64,000 bases of DNA, taken from contig JAHEJN010000001.1 of assembly GCA_024638845.1 (NCBI GenBank), positions 84,344-148,343 on the forward strand. The letters run 5' to 3'. Made by a program: the position numbers and the translations under genes. Positions 5,541 to 39,842 of the stretch are shown in pieces; within the stretch, counting starts at the first letter, position 1; each line of letters starts with the position of its first letter. A model generated the notes under the pieces. It saw only the letters and a program-made list of their open reading frames with translations, did not search any database and was not told the origin of the DNA. The DNA comes from Acidimicrobiales bacterium. GTDB lineage: Bacteria > Actinomycetota > Acidimicrobiia > Acidimicrobiales > JAHEJN01.

Positions 5541-7553
<2,013 letters not shown>

Positions 7554-7621
7554 TCACCTGGGAAATCACAACTACGAGAGTCTATCAGAGCCGGTGCCTG
7601 TTCCGAGGCACTGCGGACCCC

Positions 7622-7948
7622 TCATCGAGGCTGGACGCGCACCACGATCTTGGTGACCGCGCGAGGGCCGACGAGCTCGTCGATGCGTTCGATCACCACC
7701 GGTTCGAGCAGCCGGAGCTGCGTGCTCCAGGCCGGGTCATGGGCCGCCACCGTCAGATGGGATTTCTCGAGACCGACGGGCTGGCAATTGGCGGCCACGG
7801 CCTCGCCCACGAGATCGCTCCACCGGCCGAAGATCACGCTCAACGCCGCCGCCGACGGCACCCCGATCGATCGGGCCACCCGGTCGAGCCCGTCCTCGAG
7901 CGGACGCGGCTCGCTTCCTCTTCCGGTCGGCAGTGGTTCCCATGGCAT
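7622..7948 (-). CDS. dciA: DUF721 / DciA-family protein (putative replicative helicase operator)
   Basis: 108 aa lying between recF and gyrB, as Rv0004 does in mycobacteria. It has the motif W..LVGE..A....P..L....L.V......W...L. Confidence 0.75.
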   Translation of the reverse strand: MPWEPLPTGRGSEPRPLEDGLDRVARSIGVPSAAALSVIFGRWSDLVGEAVAANCQPVGLEKSHLTVAAHDPAWSTQLRLLEPVVIERIDELVGPRAVTKIVVRVQPR

Positions 7949-32519: not shown

Positions 32520-33500
32520 ATGGTCGGTCTCATCGTTCTCGGCATCATCGGTTTCGGCCTCATCGTCTTCCTCGCGGCGGCGGTCAAGATCGTGCGCCCC
32601 TACCAGCGGGGCATCGTCGAGCGTCTCGGCAAGTACAAGGCCACCATGGAGCCGGGTCTGCACATCCTGGTGCCGTTCATCGACAAGATGAGGCTGGTCG
32701 ACATGCGCGAGCAGGTCGTCGATGTTCCACCCCAGGAAGTGATCACCGCCGACAACGTGGTGGTCTCGGTCGACGCAGTGGTGTTCTACGAGCCCACCGA
32801 CCCCCAGCGGCTCGTGTACAACATCGCCAACTTCGTGTTGGCCATCACCAAGCTGGCCCAGACCAACCTGCGTAACCTCGTCGGTGATCTCCAGCTCGAC
32901 GCTGCGCTGACCTCCCGCGACACCATCAATACCGCGCTGCGCAACATCCTCGACGACGCCACCGACAAGTGGGGCGTGCGAGTGGTTCGAGTCGAGATCC
33001 AACGCATCGATCCGCCCGTCGACGTGATGAACGCGATGCACGAGCAGATGAAGGCCGAGCGCACCCGTCGGGCCACTGTCACCGAGGCGCAGGGCTTCCG
33101 CGAGGCCGAGATCACCCGGGCCGAGGGCGACAAGCAGTCGCGGATCCTCGAGGCCGAGGGTGTGCGCGAATCGGCCATCCTCGAGGCCGAGGGCGAGGCG
33201 CAGGCGGTGCGGACCCGGGCCGAGGCCGAGCGTTTCCGCCTCGAGCAGGTAGCCGCCGGTACCGGCGAGGCAACCCGTCTCGAGTTCCTCGGTATCCACG
33301 CCGGCGCCCCCGATTCGGAGCTGCTTGCAGTGAAGTATCTCGAAGCACTGGCCCGACTGGGCGACGGACGGGCCACCAAGCTGATCGTGCCGGCCGACTA
33401 CGCCGGCGTGCTCGGCGCAGTATTGGGTGTGGCCGAGGCCATGCGCGACAACATCGACGGCGACGACCTCACCACCCTGCCCCCGCCCCCCGCCGACTAG
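32520..33500 (+). CDS. SPFH/Band 7 (stomatin/QmcA-like) protein
   Basis: 326 aa with an N-terminal [17 protein letters not shown], and a coiled-coil EA/RA-rich region. Confidence 0.9.
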
Positions 33501-33606
33501 ATGTGATGACCGGGAACGATGTCCCTGGCGGGATGGGATTGTTGGTCCGCTGAAAAGGTGAGCCCTCCTCGCTGCCCCGAATCCCAACGCTCAGTGGCGG
33601 ATACCG

Positions 33607-34272
33607 CTATCGAACGTGGGGGTTTCGGATTGGCGAGTCGGATCGGTGGATGCTGACGGCGTAGTCGGCCGCGTCGTCGGCCGACACGGCGGCGAGTGGC
33701 TCGCCGTCCCAGGTGGCCCAACGGTGGATGAGCTCGAGGCCGAGGTCGGCGCAGAACGCGTCGTACTCGGCCAGACCGATGCCCGCCACCGGGCTGCCGG
33801 CGAGGGAGAAGCCCGCGACCAACCGTCCGCCCGGCGCCACGTGTCGGGCCATGTTGGCGATCACCGTCGATTCGGTGCCCTCGGGCACGAACAGCATCAC
33901 GTTACCGGCCAGGAGAACGAGGTCGAAGGTCCGACCGAGGTCGACGATGCCGATGTCGGCGAGCTCCCAGTGAAGGTCGGGTCGTCGGGACCGGGCGACC
34001 GCGAGCATGTCGGGGTCGACATCGACCCCGACGACATCGAACCCCTGGCGATCGAGCTCGACTGCGACGCGACCCATGCCACACCCCGCGTCGAGCACCG
34101 ATCCCCCCATGTGCAGCAGTCGTGCCACCGCATCCGCCTCACCGTGGGCGTGCTCGCCCGTCGCTTGCATCTCGGCGAACCGATTGGCGTAGGACTCGAG
34201 CTCGACGTCGCGGCGCCACTGTGCCCAGCGGCGGTTCACCCTCGGGTCGGTGTGATCGCTCGTCGAGGCCAC
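33607..34272 (-). CDS. Class I SAM-dependent methyltransferase
   Basis: 221 aa with motif I VLDAGCGMGR and post-I DVVGVDVDPDML. Confidence 0.8.
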   Translation of the reverse strand: MASTSDHTDPRVNRRWAQWRRDVELESYANRFAEMQATGEHAHGEADAVARLLHMGGSVLDAGCGMGRVAVELDRQGFDVVGVDVDPDMLAVARSRRPDLHWELADIGIVDLGRTFDLVLLAGNVMLFVPEGTESTVIANMARHVAPGGRLVAGFSLAGSPVAGIGLAEYDAFCADLGLELIHRWATWDGEPLAAVSADDAADYAVSIHRSDSPIRNPHVR

Positions 34273-34607
34273 GCCGGTGAACCTACTCGTAGAAACTCTC
34301 GGCCTTCATGTATCAGCGCCCGGGGCAACCGCTCATGTGTTCATGCTGCGGCGATGGACTCCCGGATTCTCGACCTCGGTCGAGCCGCGACGTTCATGGC
34401 GGGTCGCCTCAGATGTCACCAGTGAACCGATTCGACGGGCACGGCTCACCCGAGCCGCCGGATCGGTTCACGGTGGGAACGCTGTGGGTCGGTCAGGCGG
34501 GGCCGACCCACAGCAAGCATGCGCACGGTTGTCGCTGGGGCGGCGAGAACCGCGGCGCTGAGCGAGCGTCGATCGACACACCCCCTCCGTCGATCGGCGC
34601 GACGAGT

Positions 34608-34649
34608 ACGAAGGTGTCCTGCCCGGGCGGACCGGCAGGGCACCTTCGT
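34608..34649 (-). terminator. Long hairpin 7 nt downstream of the S8 peptidase stop (candidate terminator, no U-tract)
   Basis: The arms are acgaaggtgtcctgcc (34608-34623) and ggcagggcaccttcgt (34634-34649). The stem is 16 bp with one mismatch and a 10-nt loop. Confidence 0.45.
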
Positions 34650-34655
34650 CGCGTC

Positions 34656-36005
34656 TCAGAAGCCCTGGTTGACGATGACGCCGTAGTCGGGGAGCCGGAA
34701 CAGCCCCGGTCGACCCAACACGAGCGCGACCGCCTCGAGCGCGGTGCAGTTCCGCAGCTGGATCTGGCGAGCGATCGCCGCCACGACTCGCGGCGCCGCG
34801 AACGACGTGCCGCTCCACATGGCCCATCCCTCGAAGTCGTCGGGATCGGGGAGATCGGTGCCGGGCGGGGGGTCGAATCCACCGTTCCACTTGTCGAAGA
34901 AGATGCTGACGACGTCTTCCCCCGGAGCCGACGCGTCGACCCAGGATCCGTGATTCGAGAACCACGACGGTCCGCACGGGCCTACCGACCCGACCCCGAT
35001 GACCTCGTTCATCGCGGCAGGAAAGGTCGGGCGGCAGGTGGCGTCGTTGCCGGCCGAGGCGACGACGACGACGTCGCCCCGAACCAGCCGTCGAATGCGC
35101 CGGGCCAGGATGGGCGGAGGTGTGTCGCTCTCGTAGTAGCCACTGAAGGAGAGGTTGAGTACCGCCTGGGCGCACACACCCGCGGCGGCCCAGTCGGTGC
35201 GAATCGTGTCGAGGGCATCGGCGATGTCGCTCTCGTAGCCGACTCCGTCGTTGCGGATCGGGCCGAGCCCGCGCAGCGAGGTCTTCGGAGCACCGGCCAG
35301 GACAACGCCCTGGATGAAGCCGTTGTGGCCGGCTGCGGGGTCGAGAACCAGGTTGTCGTCGGGGTCGGGGAGCTCGATCAGGTCGCCGCTCGGCAGCTTC
35401 CACAGTCCGGTGCCGCTCTCGCCCGGCGGTACTTCGAGGTAGCCGGTGTCGATCACTCCCACCTGGGGCTTGCCTACTCCTGCGGCGAGCTTGTGGGCGA
35501 AGGGCAGCTTCGGTGGAGCGTAGGGCCGGGCGGTGCTGCGACGGCTGAACGACATCGGGTCGGTCACGATCGTGCCGCTGAAGCTCATGGGAGCCGAGTA
35601 GTACAGCCCGCTGAACGACATCGGGTTCGCCAGGATGGCGCCGCTGAACGACATCGGCGTGGCCGTCAGCGAGTCGACCATGTAGGCGATGTCGGGCGTG
35701 GCCACGTGGCCGGCGCTGCGCAGCGCTTCGACGAGCCGGGGGATGTCCTGCGGTGTGTCGAACTCGAGGATCACGAAGTCGCTACGGAGAGCGATGTCGA
35801 CGCGACCCGCTGTGAGCTCGTCGAGGAGCGCCTGGGTTTGCTCCCCGATCTTCCGCAGTTCGGGAAGGGTCACCTCTTCGTCGGCCAGAACGAGGAGGCG
35901 ACGCGGGTGATAGGCGTAGGGGCCGCTGGGTCCTTCACCGATGGCGACGTCGGTGAGCGGGTCGGGGCCGGGAAACTCGGTCGGCTTGTCGTCGTTGTCC
36001 GCCAC
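34656..36005 (-). CDS. S8 (subtilisin-family) serine peptidase, no signal peptide, with a PMSFSG repeat linker
   Basis: 449 aa with a GTG start preceded by AAGAGG. The catalytic D is in VGVIDTGY (D186), H in AAGHNGF (H227), the oxyanion N in ASAGND and S in SGTSFAAP. The acidic N-terminus MADNDDKPTEF has no signal-like segment. Confidence 0.85.
   Translation of the reverse strand: MADNDDKPTEFPGPDPLTDVAIGEGPSGPYAYHPRRLLVLADEEVTLPELRKIGEQTQALLDELTAGRVDIALRSDFVILEFDTPQDIPRLVEALRSAGHVATPDIAYMVDSLTATPMSFSGAILANPMSFSGLYYSAPMSFSGTIVTDPMSFSRRSTARPYAPPKLPFAHKLAAGVGKPQVGVIDTGYLEVPPGESGTGLWKLPSGDLIELPDPDDNLVLDPAAGHNGFIQGVVLAGAPKTSLRGLGPIRNDGVGYESDIADALDTIRTDWAAAGVCAQAVLNLSFSGYYESDTPPPILARRIRRLVRGDVVVVASAGNDATCRPTFPAAMNEVIGVGSVGPCGPSWFSNHGSWVDASAPGEDVVSIFFDKWNGGFDPPPGTDLPDPDDFEGWAMWSGTSFAAPRVVAAIARQIQLRNCTALEAVALVLGRPGLFRLPDYGVIVNQGF
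35541..35657 (-). repeat. Four in-frame tandem 33-nt (11-codon) repeats encoding PMSFSG-x5
   Basis: Residues 117-155 read PMSFSGAILAN/PMSFSGLYYSA/PMSFSGTIVTD/PMSFSR. The plus-strand core gctgaacgacatcgg occurs at 35544-35558, 35610-35624 and 35643-35657. The copy at 35574-35591 encodes the same peptide with different codons. Confidence 0.9.
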
Positions 36006-36087
36006 AGGGACCTCTTTTCGTCGTGGGCTCGCAGACTCGGGACCGATCGTCGAGCCTGCCGATGACTACGACCGTATTCTGTGACCG

Positions 36088-38766
36088 ATGAGCGTGCCCG
36101 TAGTCGATGTACAACTCGAACGAGCCCGCCACGCAGCCAGCCTCCGGCAGGCCGATCCGAGCGAGGCGCTGGCGCTGGCCGAAGCCGTTCTCGCCGATGA
36201 CGCGAGCTCCGCGTCGGCCACGGTGGTGGCCCTCGTCGCCAAGGGAATGGCGATTCGTGAGCTCGGAGACCTGGACGGATCGCGTCGGCTCCACGAGGAG
36301 GCGATCGACCGGGGTGACCGACTCGGCCTGGGCCACGAGGTTGCGCTCGCCCGGAGCTCGCTGGCCGGCGTGTTGAGCGATCTCGGCGAACCCGAGCTGG
36401 CCCTGGCCGAGGCCGAACGGGTCAAGGGCGTGGTCACCGGAACCGACCTCGCCGAGCTGGAGGTACGACGGGCGCGCGCCTTCGAGCGAATGGGCCGGAT
36501 CAGCGAGTCGATCGACGCCTATACCCGGGCGATCGACGTGATCGACGAATCGGGCGACGACATCCTCCGCGCCCGCGTGCGATGCAATCGGGGGATCACA
36601 TTGGCCTACGGTGGTCGGGTCGAGGCGGCCACCCTCGACTTCGCGGTCGCCGAGGAGCTTGCGGTGGCCCAGGGTCACGATCTGCTCGCTGGGGGAGCGG
36701 CGCACAACCTCGGTTTCGTGCTGGGTCGCAGCGGCGAGATCGTGGCCGCCCTCGATGCCTTCGAGCGGGCTCGCGACCGCTACGAGAGGATCGACTTCCC
36801 CGGCCGGGCGCGCGGCGTCTTCGAGGCCGATCGTTGCGCCGTTCTTCTGGCGGCCGGGCTCACACGCGAAGCGAAAGGGTCGGCGGCGGCCGGCGTGCAG
36901 GCGCTCGAATCGGTCGCCGACGTCGTCGATCTCGCCGAGGCCCGCTTGTTGCTCGGACGAGCGTGTCTCGCCGCCGGTGACGCATCCGCCGCCGTGACCC
37001 ACTGCGCCCAGGCGGCCGAAGAGTTCGGCGCGGCTGGTCGACCCGGATGGTTGGCCATGGCCCGCTACACGACGCTTCGAGCGCGGGCGGCATCGGGTGC
37101 GGTCGAGGGTTGGGACAGTGAGGCGAGCGAAGTGATCGACGCACTCGAGGAGCACGGCTGGTCGACCGAGGCCGACGACGTGCGCATCTTCGTCGCCGAG
37201 CTCGCCCTCCGACACGAAGACACTCACCGGGCTCGCCGTGAGCTCCAACGGGCCTCCCAGGCCCGACGATCGGGGCGAGTCGACCGTCGGGCGCAGGCGT
37301 GGTTGGCGACCGCCATCCTCCGACGCTCCGACGGCGATCGCCGCGGTGCGTTGGCAGCGCTCCGCGCCGGCCTCCGCATCATCGACGAGCACCGAGCGGT
37401 CCTCGGCGCCACCGAGCTCCGAGTCGGTGCGTCGAGCCACGCGGTGTCGCTGGCCGCGCTCGGACAGCACCTGGCGCTCGAGTCGGGCCGCCCGGGCACG
37501 GTGCTGCGATGGGCCGATCGTCTGCGGGCGTCGACGCTCACGTTGGTGCCCACTCGACCGCCCGAAGACGAGGCCCTGGCCGGCGAGCTCGTCGCCCTGC
37601 GCTCGGCTCGGGCCGATCTCGAGGCGGCGCGCCTCGCCGGCAATGACGATCGCAACGCCCGGCGAGAGGTCGGTCGTCTCGAATCGGCGATACGCGACCG
37701 GGCTCGCCGCGTCGGCGCACGAGACGACGCCGTGCGACATGAGCTGAGGGTCAGCGACATCGTCGAGCGGCTCGGCCCCGCCCACTTCGTCGAGTACCTC
37801 GAAGACGAGGGGAACCTCCACGCCGTGACCGTCACACGGGGGCGCGCCTCGTTGCACCATCTCGGCCGCGCGTCGCAGCTCGATGCGCCCCTCGACGGTG
37901 CACGATTCGCCATGCAGCGCCTGGCGACGAGGCGGGGGAGCGCCGCCGCGCGAGCCGCGGCGCTGGCGTCCCTCGTCGTCTCGTTGGACGACCTCGGGCG
38001 CATTCTGATCGACGATCTCGTGCCCCAGGGAACGGGAGGTGTGGTGATCGTTCCCACCGGTGCGCTCCATCTGATGCCGTGGGCCGGGTTTCCCCGGCTC
38101 CGCGCACGCCCGCTCACGGTGAGCCCGAGCGCGTCGATCGGCCTGGACGGCGGGCGCGTTCGGTCCGACCGTCGCCGGCCGACCGGGGTGGCGTTGATCT
38201 CGGGACCCGACCTTCCCGGCGGCCGCACCGAGGTTCGGCGACTCCGCCGGGCCCATGGTGACTCGACCATCCTCACCGGCCGAAACGCCACGGTGAGTGC
38301 CACCCTCGATGCACTCGGTTCGGCCCGGGTGGCCCACATTGCCGCCCATGGCGAGTTCCGCTCCGACAGCCCGATGTTCTCGTCGCTGCACCTGTACGAC
38401 GGGGCGCTCACGGTGTACGACCTCGAAGGGCTCCGATCGGTGCCCGAGACCGTCGTGTTGCCGGCATGTGACGCCGGTGTGGCCGATGTGTGGGCGGGCG
38501 ACGAGCTCCTCGGTACCGCGAGCGCCCTGCTCGGGCTCGGGGTGGCCAATGTCGTCGCCCCTGTCGCCGCACTACCCGATGAACAGACCGCTCCCGTGAT
38601 GCTTCGGTTCCATCGACACCTGTCCTCCGGGTTCGACCCGGCATCCGCCCTGGCCAGAGCGGCTGCTCGGTGCTGGACCAGCAGCGACCCGGCCGACGCC
38701 GCGGTGGCGACCGCCATGACCTGTTTCGGCGTGTATCGCGGCGCCGATGTATCACGACCGACCTGA
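36088..38766 (+). CDS. TPR-repeat + CHAT-domain (caspase-like Cys/His) protease
   Basis: 892 aa. The N-terminal roughly 450 aa are Ala/Leu-rich helical repeats of TPR type. The C-terminal CHAT core is VVIVPTGALHLMPW..., HIAAHGEF (His754, codon 38347-38349), SPMFSSLHL and VVLPACDAG (Cys794, codon 38467-38469). I saw no P-loop, signal peptide or TM. Confidence 0.85.
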   Translation: MSVPVVDVQLERARHAASLRQADPSEALALAEAVLADDASSASATVVALVAKGMAIRELGDLDGSRRLHEEAIDRGDRLGLGHEVALARSSLAGVLSDLGEPELALAEAERVKGVVTGTDLAELEVRRARAFERMGRISESIDAYTRAIDVIDESGDDILRARVRCNRGITLAYGGRVEAATLDFAVAEELAVAQGHDLLAGGAAHNLGFVLGRSGEIVAALDAFERARDRYERIDFPGRARGVFEADRCAVLLAAGLTREAKGSAAAGVQALESVADVVDLAEARLLLGRACLAAGDASAAVTHCAQAAEEFGAAGRPGWLAMARYTTLRARAASGAVEGWDSEASEVIDALEEHGWSTEADDVRIFVAELALRHEDTHRARRELQRASQARRSGRVDRRAQAWLATAILRRSDGDRRGALAALRAGLRIIDEHRAVLGATELRVGASSHAVSLAALGQHLALESGRPGTVLRWADRLRASTLTLVPTRPPEDEALAGELVALRSARADLEAARLAGNDDRNARREVGRLESAIRDRARRVGARDDAVRHELRVSDIVERLGPAHFVEYLEDEGNLHAVTVTRGRASLHHLGRASQLDAPLDGARFAMQRLATRRGSAAARAAALASLVVSLDDLGRILIDDLVPQGTGGVVIVPTGALHLMPWAGFPRLRARPLTVSPSASIGLDGGRVRSDRRRPTGVALISGPDLPGGRTEVRRLRRAHGDSTILTGRNATVSATLDALGSARVAHIAAHGEFRSDSPMFSSLHLYDGALTVYDLEGLRSVPETVVLPACDAGVADVWAGDELLGTASALLGLGVANVVAPVAALPDEQTAPVMLRFHRHLSSGFDPASALARAAARCWTSSDPADAAVATAMTCFGVYRGADVSRPT

Positions 38767-38781
38767 GGCGCTCATGTACAC

Positions 38782-39384
38782 ATGCAACGCGCCCCTGCCA
38801 CCCGCCTCCTACAGTGCCCACCTGTGAACCGAAGTTCCGATTCGAACGCCGAGCTGTTGCGGGCGGTGATCGATGGCAACGCCTCGGCCTGGAACGAGCT
38901 GGTCGAGCGCTACGGCCGGCTCGTGTGGTCGATCACCCGTTCGTTCCGGCTCGACGAGGCCGCTGCCGCCGACGTCTCCCAGACCGTCTGGCTCCGCCTC
39001 ACCGAGAACTGCACCAAGATCACCGACCCGACGAAGCTGGCTTCATGGCTGGCCACGACCACCCGCAACGAGTCCCTGCGAGTGGTGCGCCAACGGCAGC
39101 GAACCCGGCCGTCCGAGCTCATCGACGAGGGACCCGACCCTCTGGCCCGCCCGGTCGGCGATCGTCTGCTCGACGACGAGACCATCGGCGAGGCCATCGA
39201 CGCCTTCGTGATGCTGAGCGACGAGTGTCGCCAGCTCCTGCGTCTGGTCTGTGCGGTGCCTGCGATCGACTACGCCACCATCTCGGAGATCACGGGGCGG
39301 CCGATCGGCAGCATCGGCCCCACGCGGAGTCGCTGCCTCGATCGACTGCGCCTCAACATGGCCGAAGCGGGGGGAGAGAACTGA
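38782..39384 (+). CDS. ECF-type sigma-70 family RNA polymerase sigma factor
   Basis: Region 2 is WNELVERYGRLVWSITRSFRLDEAAAADVSQTVWLRL and region 4 is LSDECRQLLRLVCAVPAIDYATISEITGRPIGSIGPTRSRCLDRLR. GTG 38824 is an alternative start. The gene lies 15 nt after the CHAT stop. Confidence 0.85.
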   Translation: MQRAPATRLLQCPPVNRSSDSNAELLRAVIDGNASAWNELVERYGRLVWSITRSFRLDEAAAADVSQTVWLRLTENCTKITDPTKLASWLATTTRNESLRVVRQRQRTRPSELIDEGPDPLARPVGDRLLDDETIGEAIDAFVMLSDECRQLLRLVCAVPAIDYATISEITGRPIGSIGPTRSRCLDRLRLNMAEAGGEN

Positions 39385-39842
39385 TGACCGACGAATCACC
39401 GCTCACCGACGACGAGCTGCTCGTCCTGTTGGCCCAGGCGATCGCCACGACCGACCCGATCCCCGGACACGTCCTCGACGCAGCCAAGGGCTCGTACGCT
39501 TGGTTCGGCATCGACGACGAGCTCGCGGCGCTCACCTTCGACTCGGTCAGCGAGGATCTGGTCGGCGCCCGGTCGGCCACCACCTCCGACCGCCAGCTCA
39601 CCTTCACCAGTCCTGGTGTCGAGGTCGAACTGGCGATCATGGGCGACGGCGAACGCCGCCTGGTCGGCCAGTTCACCCCACCGGCCGAGGCAACGATCGT
39701 GCTCGAGACCACCGATGCCACCCGCGAGACGACCGCCGATCATCTCGGTCGTTTCAGCTTCGCCGACGTGGCCGGCGGCCTGCTCCGCCTCACCATCGTG
39801 TCGGGGGCCACCCGCGTGAAGACCGAGTGGATCATCGTCTGA
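39384..39842 (+). CDS. Hypothetical soluble 152-aa protein, translationally coupled to the sigma factor (candidate anti-sigma or partner)
   Basis: Its ATG overlaps the sigma stop (cTGATGa). It has an acidic N-terminus MTDESPLTDDELLVLL and a beta-rich C-terminus GRFSFADVAGGLLRLTIVSGATRVKTEWIIV. It has no TM helix and no zf-HC2 motif. It is read from the C-terminal part of track ORF 38670..39842. Confidence 0.6.
   Translation: MTDESPLTDDELLVLLAQAIATTDPIPGHVLDAAKGSYAWFGIDDELAALTFDSVSEDLVGARSATTSDRQLTFTSPGVEVELAIMGDGERRLVGQFTPPAEATIVLETTDATRETTADHLGRFSFADVAGGLLRLTIVSGATRVKTEWIIV

Follow-up and report, generated by a model that had tools for sequence, protein, structure and literature searches.

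Why should a bacterial subtilase carry several copies of one short peptide exactly where its N-terminal domain gives way to its catalytic domain? The question is raised by a minus-strand open reading frame (ORF) at 34656..36005 of a 64,000-nucleotide stretch of DNA from an Acidimicrobiales bacterium (contig JAHEJN010000001.1, positions 84,344 to 148,343 of the forward strand; hereafter the window, 67.5% GC). The ORF encodes, from a GTG start, a 449-residue peptidase of the S8 (subtilase) family, and a near-identical database protein, P0001 (99% identity), is of equal length. Residues 117-155 of the S8 protein (nucleotides 35657..35541) read PMSFSGAILAN-PMSFSGLYYSA-PMSFSGTIVTD-PMSFSR, thus forming four PMSFS(G/R) units spaced 11 residues apart, with TAT- before copy 1 and -RSTARP after copy 4.

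Translation and a core search place the copies, all on the minus strand, at 35625..35657 (PMSFSG+AILAN, residues 117-127), 35592..35624 (PMSFSG+LYYSA, residues 128-138), 35559..35591 (PMSFSG+TIVTD, residues 139-149) and 35541..35558 (PMSFSR, residues 150-155), the last of which appears, from alignments to thermitase and the AK.1 protease, to be fused to the mature N-terminus. A 15-nucleotide core, ccgatgtcgttcagc (plus strand gctgaacgacatcgg), occurs exactly three times, at 35544, 35610 and 35643, and nowhere else in the 64 kb. Copy 3 is written ccc atg agc ttc agc ggc, with CCC ATG AGC in place of CCG ATG TCG, and the serine codons across the four copies run TCG/TCG/AGC/TCG. Tandem Repeats Finder reports a period of 33 nucleotides and 3.5 copies, and no two of the spacers AILAN, LYYSA and TIVTD are alike. 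A preliminary description of this DNA, made from the sequence without database searches, had given the array the same residues and coordinates and had recorded the core shared by three copies, the differently encoded third copy and the unlike spacers; each of these particulars was confirmed exactly. Four identical pentapeptides in a strict 11-residue register, kept in orthologues, are far beyond chance. The acetylated array-unit peptide is written Ac-TATPMSFSGAIL.

Whether the peptide or the DNA is the conserved entity can be read from the codons. Arrays were delimited at the DNA level in 27 loci, and the distinct variant codons were compared with the majority codon of each column. Within arrays 74 variant codons are synonymous and 14 non-synonymous, a synonymous share of 84% against an expectation without constraint of roughly 25-30% (about one quarter); in the PFRGH array of locus L007 there are five synonymous variants and no replacement. 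Thus, the unit peptide is under selection. A DNA-level role for the repeat was rejected, as the variation between copies is synonymous and the conservation lies at the peptide level. The PVMSGN array of locus L022 (7761-7904) alternates two synonymous codon versions, CCG..GGC AAC and CCT..GGT AAT, and has a 36-nucleotide higher-order period that is evidence for expansion by two-unit duplications without amino-acid change.

The clade to which the window protein belongs, characterized by a period of 11 residues (32 proteins, 104 copies, down to 39% identity), reveals which parts of the unit are constrained. Proline and phenylalanine are essentially invariant in the 104 copies and methionine is nearly so, while position 3 varies among S, T, H, R and K from protein to protein, and position 5 among S, N, A, T and G. 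All copies within a protein nevertheless agree, at position 3 in 31 of the 32 proteins and at position 5 in 29. Such agreement does not reflect recent homogenization. In the window and in three orthologues (L086, 87% identity; L085, 62%; L087, 54%) the spacers are copy-specific and orthologous, each of the four proteins having xYYxA as spacer 2 and x[IL]V[TA]D as spacer 3; the cores of each gene differ from one another at synonymous sites; and the TCG/TCG/AGC/TCG pattern of the window, including the altered codons of copy 3, is kept in L086. The copies are therefore old, and positions 3 and 5 have changed alike in all of them (to S/S, T/N or H/A, depending on the lineage), which implies that every copy is read by one same site that differs between lineages. 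The proposal in the preliminary description that selection acts on the peptide, as opposed to recent slippage, is upheld by the codon ratio and by the TCG/AGC pattern and spacers retained at 87% identity, and the four-copy layout proved common to orthologues down to 54% identity. As to whether repeat number varies among orthologues, it does, from two to four copies in the period-11 clade; the hexapeptide itself is not invariant, only its proline and phenylalanine being essentially fixed and its methionine nearly so, with positions 3 and 5 varying jointly across copies.

The array extends well beyond this clade. A search of 5.8 billion proteins returned 325 relatives, from which 107 listed homologues with an N-terminal region were analysed, and 185,579 species genomes were scanned. 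An array occupies this one position, directly ahead of the catalytic Asp and of a conserved S-[ST]-A-R-P motif, in 97 of the 107 listed homologues, with periods of 5, 6, 10 or 11 residues and from 2 to more than 17 copies. The units are lineage-specific yet uniform within one protein (for example SPVYA, NPFYA, PFRGH and PYPGGG). Close relatives (39-99% identity) bear two to four units of period 10-11, typically DPM[RHT]F[AST]x, and in the period-11 clade the last copy is always at a fixed distance from the invariant STARP at the mature start. More distant relatives have period 5 and three to more than 17 units; SPVYA is the commonest and SPAYA, NPFYA, SPFHA, NPLHA, NPLRG and SPMF[AG] also occur. 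The genome scan added the period-5 units PFRGH, PTRWG and NPWRA and the period-6 units FANPAT, PYPGGG, ANPYPG, HPSTWP, PGVIGS, PVMSGN, PAYLGN, SDPLHH and HPFTQS. Proline is present in every unit, and the residue that follows it is hydrophobic in all 97 arrays (V 44, M 33, F 9, L 5, A 5, I 1). Most of the named source organisms are Acidimicrobiia (Ilumatobacteraceae), Solirubrobacterales and other Actinomycetota, with some Chloroflexi. In other Actinomycetes, relatives encoded beside a CHAT protein lack the array and have in its place just one motif of the TP[ML]G type, which suggests that the arrays are amplifications of a junction segment.

Database annotation gives little hint of this feature: the relatives carry generic names ("S8 family serine peptidase"), and their sole domain flag is a spurious Extensin_1 match caused by the repeats. 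The 62-residue array segment had no significant match among the 5.8 billion proteins, a short and compositionally biased query that cannot reach significance. Runs of N, translated as X, break the arrays in two public assemblies (L005 at ~7800-7900 and L006 at ~7500-7650), and database copy numbers are probably too low where assemblers or masking have collapsed the repeats. Period-5 relatives (P0035-P0120, for example P0046, P0057 and P0072) have, between the last prodomain strand and the array, a conserved Cys-rich CxCC(C)xPHP motif that may be a metal- or redox-sensing site; the motif is not found in the window S8 protein.

The enzyme that carries the array is a bona fide S8 peptidase. Its catalytic domain (34659..35522, minus strand) matches Pfam PF00082 (E=3.2e-12, 46.8 bits against a cutoff of 21.8) and, in Foldseek comparisons, the subtilisin fold (E ~1e-14). 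Because D186 (35448-35450), H227 (35325-35327), S401 (34803-34805) and the oxyanion residue N320 are invariant in the 107 homologues, activity is to be expected of the enzyme. Neither a signal peptide nor a transmembrane segment was found in the protein: the maximum 19-residue hydropathy is 1.18 and there is no hydrophobic N-terminal segment, and in the stop-to-stop frame only 20 codons precede the start. An AlphaFold model of the full-length protein, built on the 107-sequence alignment (mean predicted local distance difference test score, pLDDT, 87.6; predicted template-modelling score, pTM, 0.89), gives the catalytic domain a pLDDT above 90 and packs onto it a confident alpha/beta domain comprising residues 20-110 (pLDDT ~95; prodomain-like region, residues ~20-112, at 35670..35948, minus strand). 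The topology of this domain is strand-helix-strand-strand-helix-strand, and the final strand, VATPDIAYMV, corresponds to AxPNHVxF in the family consensus. Since the best full-length Foldseek matches are unautoprocessed pro-subtilisin E (3whi), PCSK9 and Pro-Tk-subtilisin, with ~450 columns aligned, the N-terminal domain would be, by predicted fold only, a docked pro-subtilisin-like prodomain and the S8 protein a zymogen of the pro-subtilisin type. Residues 1-110 match no Pfam family, Inhibitor_I9 included, at E up to 1.

Between these two confidently modelled domains the array (residues 113-152) is predicted to be disordered, with a pLDDT of 30-55 that persists when the prodomain is deleted from the modelled construct. 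Its start lies a few residues past the final strand of the prodomain, and its end matches the beginning of mature thermitase and of the AK.1 protease: query residue 158 aligns with chain residue 9 of the former and query residue 172 with chain residue 25 of the latter. The canonical mature N-terminus would thus lie at about residues 148-151, inside copy 4, and the junction at about 148-155. If D186 is equated with Asp32 of subtilisin BPN', the P1 Tyr at the junction of BPN' corresponds to F154. The STARP motif at the start of the mature domain (residues 157-161; 35523..35537, minus strand; family consensus SSARP/STARP) lies 25-30 residues ahead of the catalytic Asp, and its A159 and P161 are at least 90% conserved in the 107 sequences. 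The preliminary description had taken the N-terminal ~110 residues for a prodomain and had placed the repeats at its junction with the catalytic domain. The docked domain in the model and the pro-subtilisin matches agree with the former proposal, and the thermitase and AK.1 alignments with the latter.

The genes that accompany the S8 gene bear on what might read the array. Divergently transcribed from it, across an 82-bp intergenic region that is presumably a shared promoter region (36006..36087), is a plus-strand gene (36088..38766) encoding an 892-residue TPR-CHAT protein with TPR_12/TPR_1 repeats at residues 48-150 and, at residues 636-867, a CHAT domain that contains an AHGEF His motif and a candidate catalytic Cys in LPACDAG; the neighbouring CHAT gene of the preliminary description is therefore real. 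Directly downstream on the same strand follows a gene for a 200-residue sigma-70 factor of the extracytoplasmic function (ECF) type (38782..39384; Pfam Sigma70_r2; NCBIfam TIGR02937 sigma70-ECF above cutoff). A fourth module gene (39381..39842, plus strand) overlaps the sigma stop codon and encodes a small protein of ~153 residues with a weak CarboxypepD_reg-like C-terminus (PF13620, E=6.6e-4, below the Pfam cutoff). Unannotated genes for 149-152 residues occupy the same position in L085 and L086, and a CarboxypepD_reg gene adjoins the sigma gene in L082; the 153-residue protein is probably the 'carboxypeptidase' component of ECF54 neighbourhoods and is a candidate regulator or substrate.

Searches with the window proteins (tblastn) found TPR-CHAT genes, usually with a sigma factor, in ~45 of 80 related loci ranging from Acidimicrobiia to Micromonosporaceae, Pseudonocardia, Amycolatopsis and even Anaerolineales, and the two closest orthologous loci (L085 and L086) are fully syntenic with the window. 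Where an array-bearing S8 gene is not linked to CHAT, a gene combining Guanylate_cyc, an AAA_22/AAA_16 NTPase and TPR lies immediately upstream on the same strand (eight of eight loci, and P0039). These genes, in L003, L004, L005, L007, L008, L010, L016 and L040 (ending at ~7200-7900) and in L083 (5386-7980), encode proteins of ~870-1180 residues, of which that of L010 also bears SARP Trans_reg_C/BTAD domains. The S8 gene and the cyclase-NTPase-TPR gene constitute a second, apparently undescribed, two-gene module of the same S8 family. The readable part of the L019 partner is a TPR region, and the period-5 proteins P0046 and P0071 have TPR-CHAT partners. A large TPR protein thus adjoins every array-bearing S8 gene with a readable flank, its other domains differing, and because arrays pair with either TPR-CHAT or the CHAT-less cyclase-NTPase-TPR protein, the constant partner feature is the TPR domain and not CHAT. 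Conversely, many CHAT-linked S8 genes lack an array. The unit motif was found only inside the S8 arrays when all six frames of 28 loci were scanned for it in neighbouring genes, indicating that the sigma factor, the CHAT protein and the small protein share no such cleavage or docking motif.

The direct observations are the position and conservation of the array, selection on its peptide, its predicted disorder, the intact triad and the identity of the partner genes. The reading that we favour, albeit tentatively, is that the array consists of iterated, active-site-directed junction motifs that gate zymogen activation of a cytoplasmic subtilase. Each unit follows the order Pro, hydrophobic, (x), aromatic, small, small (here P-M-S-F-S-G, in most relatives P-V-Y-A-S), and would act as a substrate or pseudo-substrate element, carried on the disordered tether that links the catalytic domain to the inhibitory prodomain docked on it. 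The S8 enzyme would be made inactive, and its activation would require the tether to be cut, either within one molecule (in cis) or, as seems more plausible, by another S8 molecule (in trans) when both are gathered on a partner protein. This partner would be the TPR-CHAT protein in the window and, in other clades, the cyclase-NTPase-TPR protein. The exposure of several identical sites would make cutting more likely or set its kinetics, and trans-processing on the TPR partner would be analogous to the proximity-induced activation of caspases on STAND platforms. Once active, the enzyme would have downstream targets, which in the window presumably belong to the ECF sigma pathway. The binding of a unit in the S8 cleft, its cutting and the order of these events are what we infer.

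Such gating is favoured by the junction position of the array, the fixed distance from its last copy to STARP, the single junction motif of array-less relatives, selection on the peptide, the invariant triad and oxyanion Asn, the docked prodomain and the precedent of the intracellular subtilisins discussed below. Since either type of partner can accompany an array, it is moreover the S8 enzyme that stays constant. The Pro-hydrophobic grammar of the units also resembles that of subtilisin substrates, in that classic examples such as AAPF place Pro at P2 and a hydrophobic residue at P1, and the commonest unit, PVY/AS, resembles the BPN' junction AHAY/AQS (the slash marking the cut). Other observations weigh against it. 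AlphaFold docks no copy in the active-site cleft, with or without the prodomain, so that the cleft-bound repeats envisaged in the preliminary description were not seen, although this is weak negative evidence. Some distant CHAT-linked units (PYPGGG, PHGPTP and YPNPGG) would be poor subtilisin substrates and would need an uncleavable, pseudo-substrate role. The substrate-binding segments NLSFSGY and ASAGND are nearly invariant while the units differ widely, so that the S8 cleft shows no obvious counterpart of the coordinated change at positions 3 and 5.

It could instead be that the receptor lies in the partner. Under this alternative, the main rival and possible though less likely than not, the array would serve as a multivalent ligand, built of short linear motifs, that is bound by the partner's TPR domain, whose superhelix, like those of other TPR proteins, would typically bind short extended peptides; the array would tether the S8 enzyme or line up partners for proximity-induced activation, and the unit would co-evolve with the TPR groove. 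The occurrence of a large TPR protein, with CHAT or with cyclase and AAA_22/AAA_16, beside every array-bearing S8 gene with a readable flank is what such a ligand would lead one to expect, as are the disorder usual for such motifs and lineage-specific, internally uniform units whose positions 3 and 5 move together in old copies, as if fitting one variable receptor, in contrast to the near-invariant S8 cleft. It best explains the constant TPR association and also the coordinated changes at positions 3 and 5. It leaves unexplained, however, the exact location at the pro/mature junction and the substrate-like grammar; the many S8 genes of the CHAT-sigma module without an array show that coupling works without one, and the unit is absent from all neighbouring genes. 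Mutual information between positions 3 and 5 and the columns of the catalytic domain yielded only a phylogeny-confounded signal, in the variable insert 189-215. Binding to a TPR groove and gating of the junction are mutually compatible. A related proposal, which we consider improbable, makes the S8 enzyme a self-encoded peptide dispenser that cuts its own array into identical peptides of 5-11 residues, or presents it uncut as a multivalent scaffold, the peptides being ligands for the TPR sensor of the partner, either the TPR-CHAT caspase-like protease or the cyclase-STAND NTPase. If true, RRNPP-type peptide signalling would have a counterpart inside the cell, working as a feed-forward switch or timer over the ECF sigma factor or a cyclic-nucleotide output, with lineage-specific units as private codes that co-evolve with each TPR groove.

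The preliminary description had suggested cleavage or docking by the neighbouring CHAT protease. That the units are sites at which this caspase-like enzyme frees the S8 catalytic domain from its prodomain would suit the adjacent, divergent arrangement kept in ~45 of 80 loci and the candidate catalytic Cys and His motif of the CHAT domain. Csx29, a related CRISPR-associated TPR-CHAT protease, reportedly cuts after Met or Leu, which would fit P-M/S. Its target is a partner protein in a sigma-factor pathway (PMC10028731). Similar arrays are present, however, in at least nine loci whose partner has no CHAT domain, and many CHAT-linked S8 enzymes have no array; cleavage by CHAT therefore cannot explain a family-wide feature and is unlikely to be the function of the units, although it may occur in the clade of the window. 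Least probable of all is that the array is a slippage-prone, Pro-containing flexible spacer in which only length and disorder matter. The labile copy number (two to four in the period-11 clade, three to more than 17 at period 5), the hypervariability of units between lineages, the predicted disorder and the expansion by duplication evident in L022 are all compatible with a spacer, but a sequence-independent one is contradicted by the 74:14 codon statistics and is at odds with the near-fixed P, F and M, the use of TCG for serine in three copies but of AGC in the remaining one, the parallel change of positions 3 and 5 in old copies and the hydrophobic residue that follows proline in every array. 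Self-cleavage at Asn-Pro or Asp-Pro (NPTH-type) was also considered and set aside, as no structured context is predicted and the residue before proline in the window is T, N, A or D.

Known systems offer precedents for parts of this arrangement. Classical pro-subtilisins (subtilisin E/BPN', Tk-subtilisin and PCSK9) have an I9-type prodomain, both a folding chaperone and an inhibitor, with one junction at which autoprocessing takes place. The window protein shares with them the Asp-His-Ser catalytic domain and a predicted docked alpha/beta prodomain, and its units resemble the junction sequence and sit at the junction. In the window family, however, the junction recurs, in 2 to more than 17 copies, along a disordered tether 20-100 residues long, whereas theirs is single and runs straight into the cleft; the window S8 enzyme is cytoplasmic, its prodomain is unmatched by Pfam I9, and its gene is linked to those of TPR signalling proteins. 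The intracellular subtilisins (ISPs) of Bacillus and Planococcus are likewise cytoplasmic S8 enzymes. These have no prodomain and carry an 18-residue N-terminal extension with one [LVI]-[IFLV]-P-[YFH] motif, and this Pro-centred LIPY/F pseudo-substrate, with an aromatic residue next to its Pro, lies across the active site and is inhibitory until removed (PMC6220982). ISP structures 2x8j, 2wv7 and 7y6m are among the sequence matches of the window S8 protein. The latter, in contrast, has a prodomain-like region of ~110 residues and four P-M-S-F copies with Pro ahead of the hydrophobic residues, and its T/N/A/D-P-M-S-F units do not fit the ISP pattern. As it has a prodomain and no LIPY/F match, it is not an ISP; the ISP motif is nonetheless a precedent for the silencing of a cytoplasmic subtilase by a Pro-centred pseudo-substrate, the mechanism proposed for the window units.

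The gene neighbourhood has its own precedents. In the ECF54 neighbourhoods of Actinobacteria, genes for a subtilase, a CHAT protein and a carboxypeptidase-like protein accompany that of an ECF sigma factor, and there is no anti-sigma factor (PMC8999054); proteolytic regulation of these neighbourhoods has been proposed and they are known only from genomics (PMC8999054, PMC7826278). The window holds the same set of genes (S8, TPR-CHAT, ECF sigma and CarboxypepD_reg-like), kept across Actinomycetota, and by gene content the module appears to fit an ECF54-type context, its sigma factor having matched only the generic sigma70-ECF model TIGR02937. Related array-bearing S8 enzymes that pair with cyclase-NTPase-TPR proteins fall, however, outside the ECF54 description, and no description of the repeat arrays was found in the searchable literature (including PMC8999054, PMC7826278 and PMC11506125), which leaves most subscription journals out of its scope. 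TPR-CHAT proteins take part in sigma control in the craspase system (Csx29/Csx30/RpoE; PMC10028731) and with the anti-sigma factor DdvA (PMC11506125). As in these systems, the TPR-CHAT protein of the window is encoded beside an ECF sigma factor, suggesting a proteolytic switch upstream of transcription; the window module differs in adding a second protease, the S8 enzyme with its array, and the partners and topology of the craspase and DdvA systems are different. The flanking genes of the window (S8, sigma factor, small beta-rich protein, esterase and methyltransferase) do not form a type III-E setting with a Cas7-11 effector and Csx30/Csx31, and they gave no Pfam match to Cas families, no dedicated CRISPR array scan having been made. 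PADLOC returned weak partial matches, to a generic subtilase model (E=1e-7) and to BovA (E=1.9e-5 over ~90 residues).

Repeat-containing precursors, such as the cyanobactin PatE with PatA/PatG and fungal Kex2-processed repeat proteins, which are cut by subtilases, and RRNPP signalling peptides, to which TPR receptors bind, resemble the window family in having tandem peptides of 5-11 residues, a subtilase and TPR nearby, and the unit lengths match those of typical TPR-bound signalling peptides. In the window, however, the repeats are part of the protease, where they separate its prodomain from its catalytic domain, and the system has no secretion signal or conserved modification enzyme; the NCBIfam PatA/PatG model scored 25 bits on the window S8 protein against a cutoff of 421. 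A methyltransferase gene downstream of the S8 gene (33607-34272) was rejected as a modifier of the repeat, as its conservation is limited to the two closest syntenic loci and none of the 80 other loci has it.

Some further features of these loci deserve mention. An 818-residue minus-strand ORF (35935-38391) and a 585-residue plus-strand ORF (34308-36065) were dismissed as shadow ORFs on the basis of their Arg/Gly-rich composition, frame statistics and the 67.5% GC content; such long antisense ORFs over the CHAT and S8 genes could mislead gene callers. An antitoxin-like AbiEi_4 gene lies between the methyltransferase and Band_7/NfeD genes in L085 (8414-9343) and L086 (8410-9339), and the window has only ~100 bp at this position (~33500-33607). 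The TPR-CHAT partner of P0071 in L082 (5094-7874, minus strand) is called as three genes (TPR, 533 residues; unknown, 165 residues; CHAT, 168 residues), which points either to a frameshift or decay in this partner or to faulty assembly. Within the CHAT domain of the window, SPMFSS just after AHGEF (38251-38268, plus strand; TPR-CHAT residues ~722-727) looks superficially like PMSFS, a likeness that we judge to be a coincidence with the conserved CHAT motif H.G......P..S.L.

Taken together, these data point to an undescribed way of controlling protease activation. Cytoplasmic subtilases need a tight off-state, and the single LIPY/F motif of Bacillus ISPs is the only well-described means of imposing it. 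The array represents a second design, widespread in Acidimicrobiia, other Actinomycetota and some Chloroflexi, in which a reiterated, selected and concertedly evolving element occupies the zymogen junction. It gives an experimental handle on ECF54-type sigma modules, whose subtilase and CHAT genes have been noted since 2015, and bears on how bacterial caspase-like proteins and STAND platforms might activate a second protease. Because two motif positions change in parallel in all copies, the array predicts one identifiable, co-evolving receptor.

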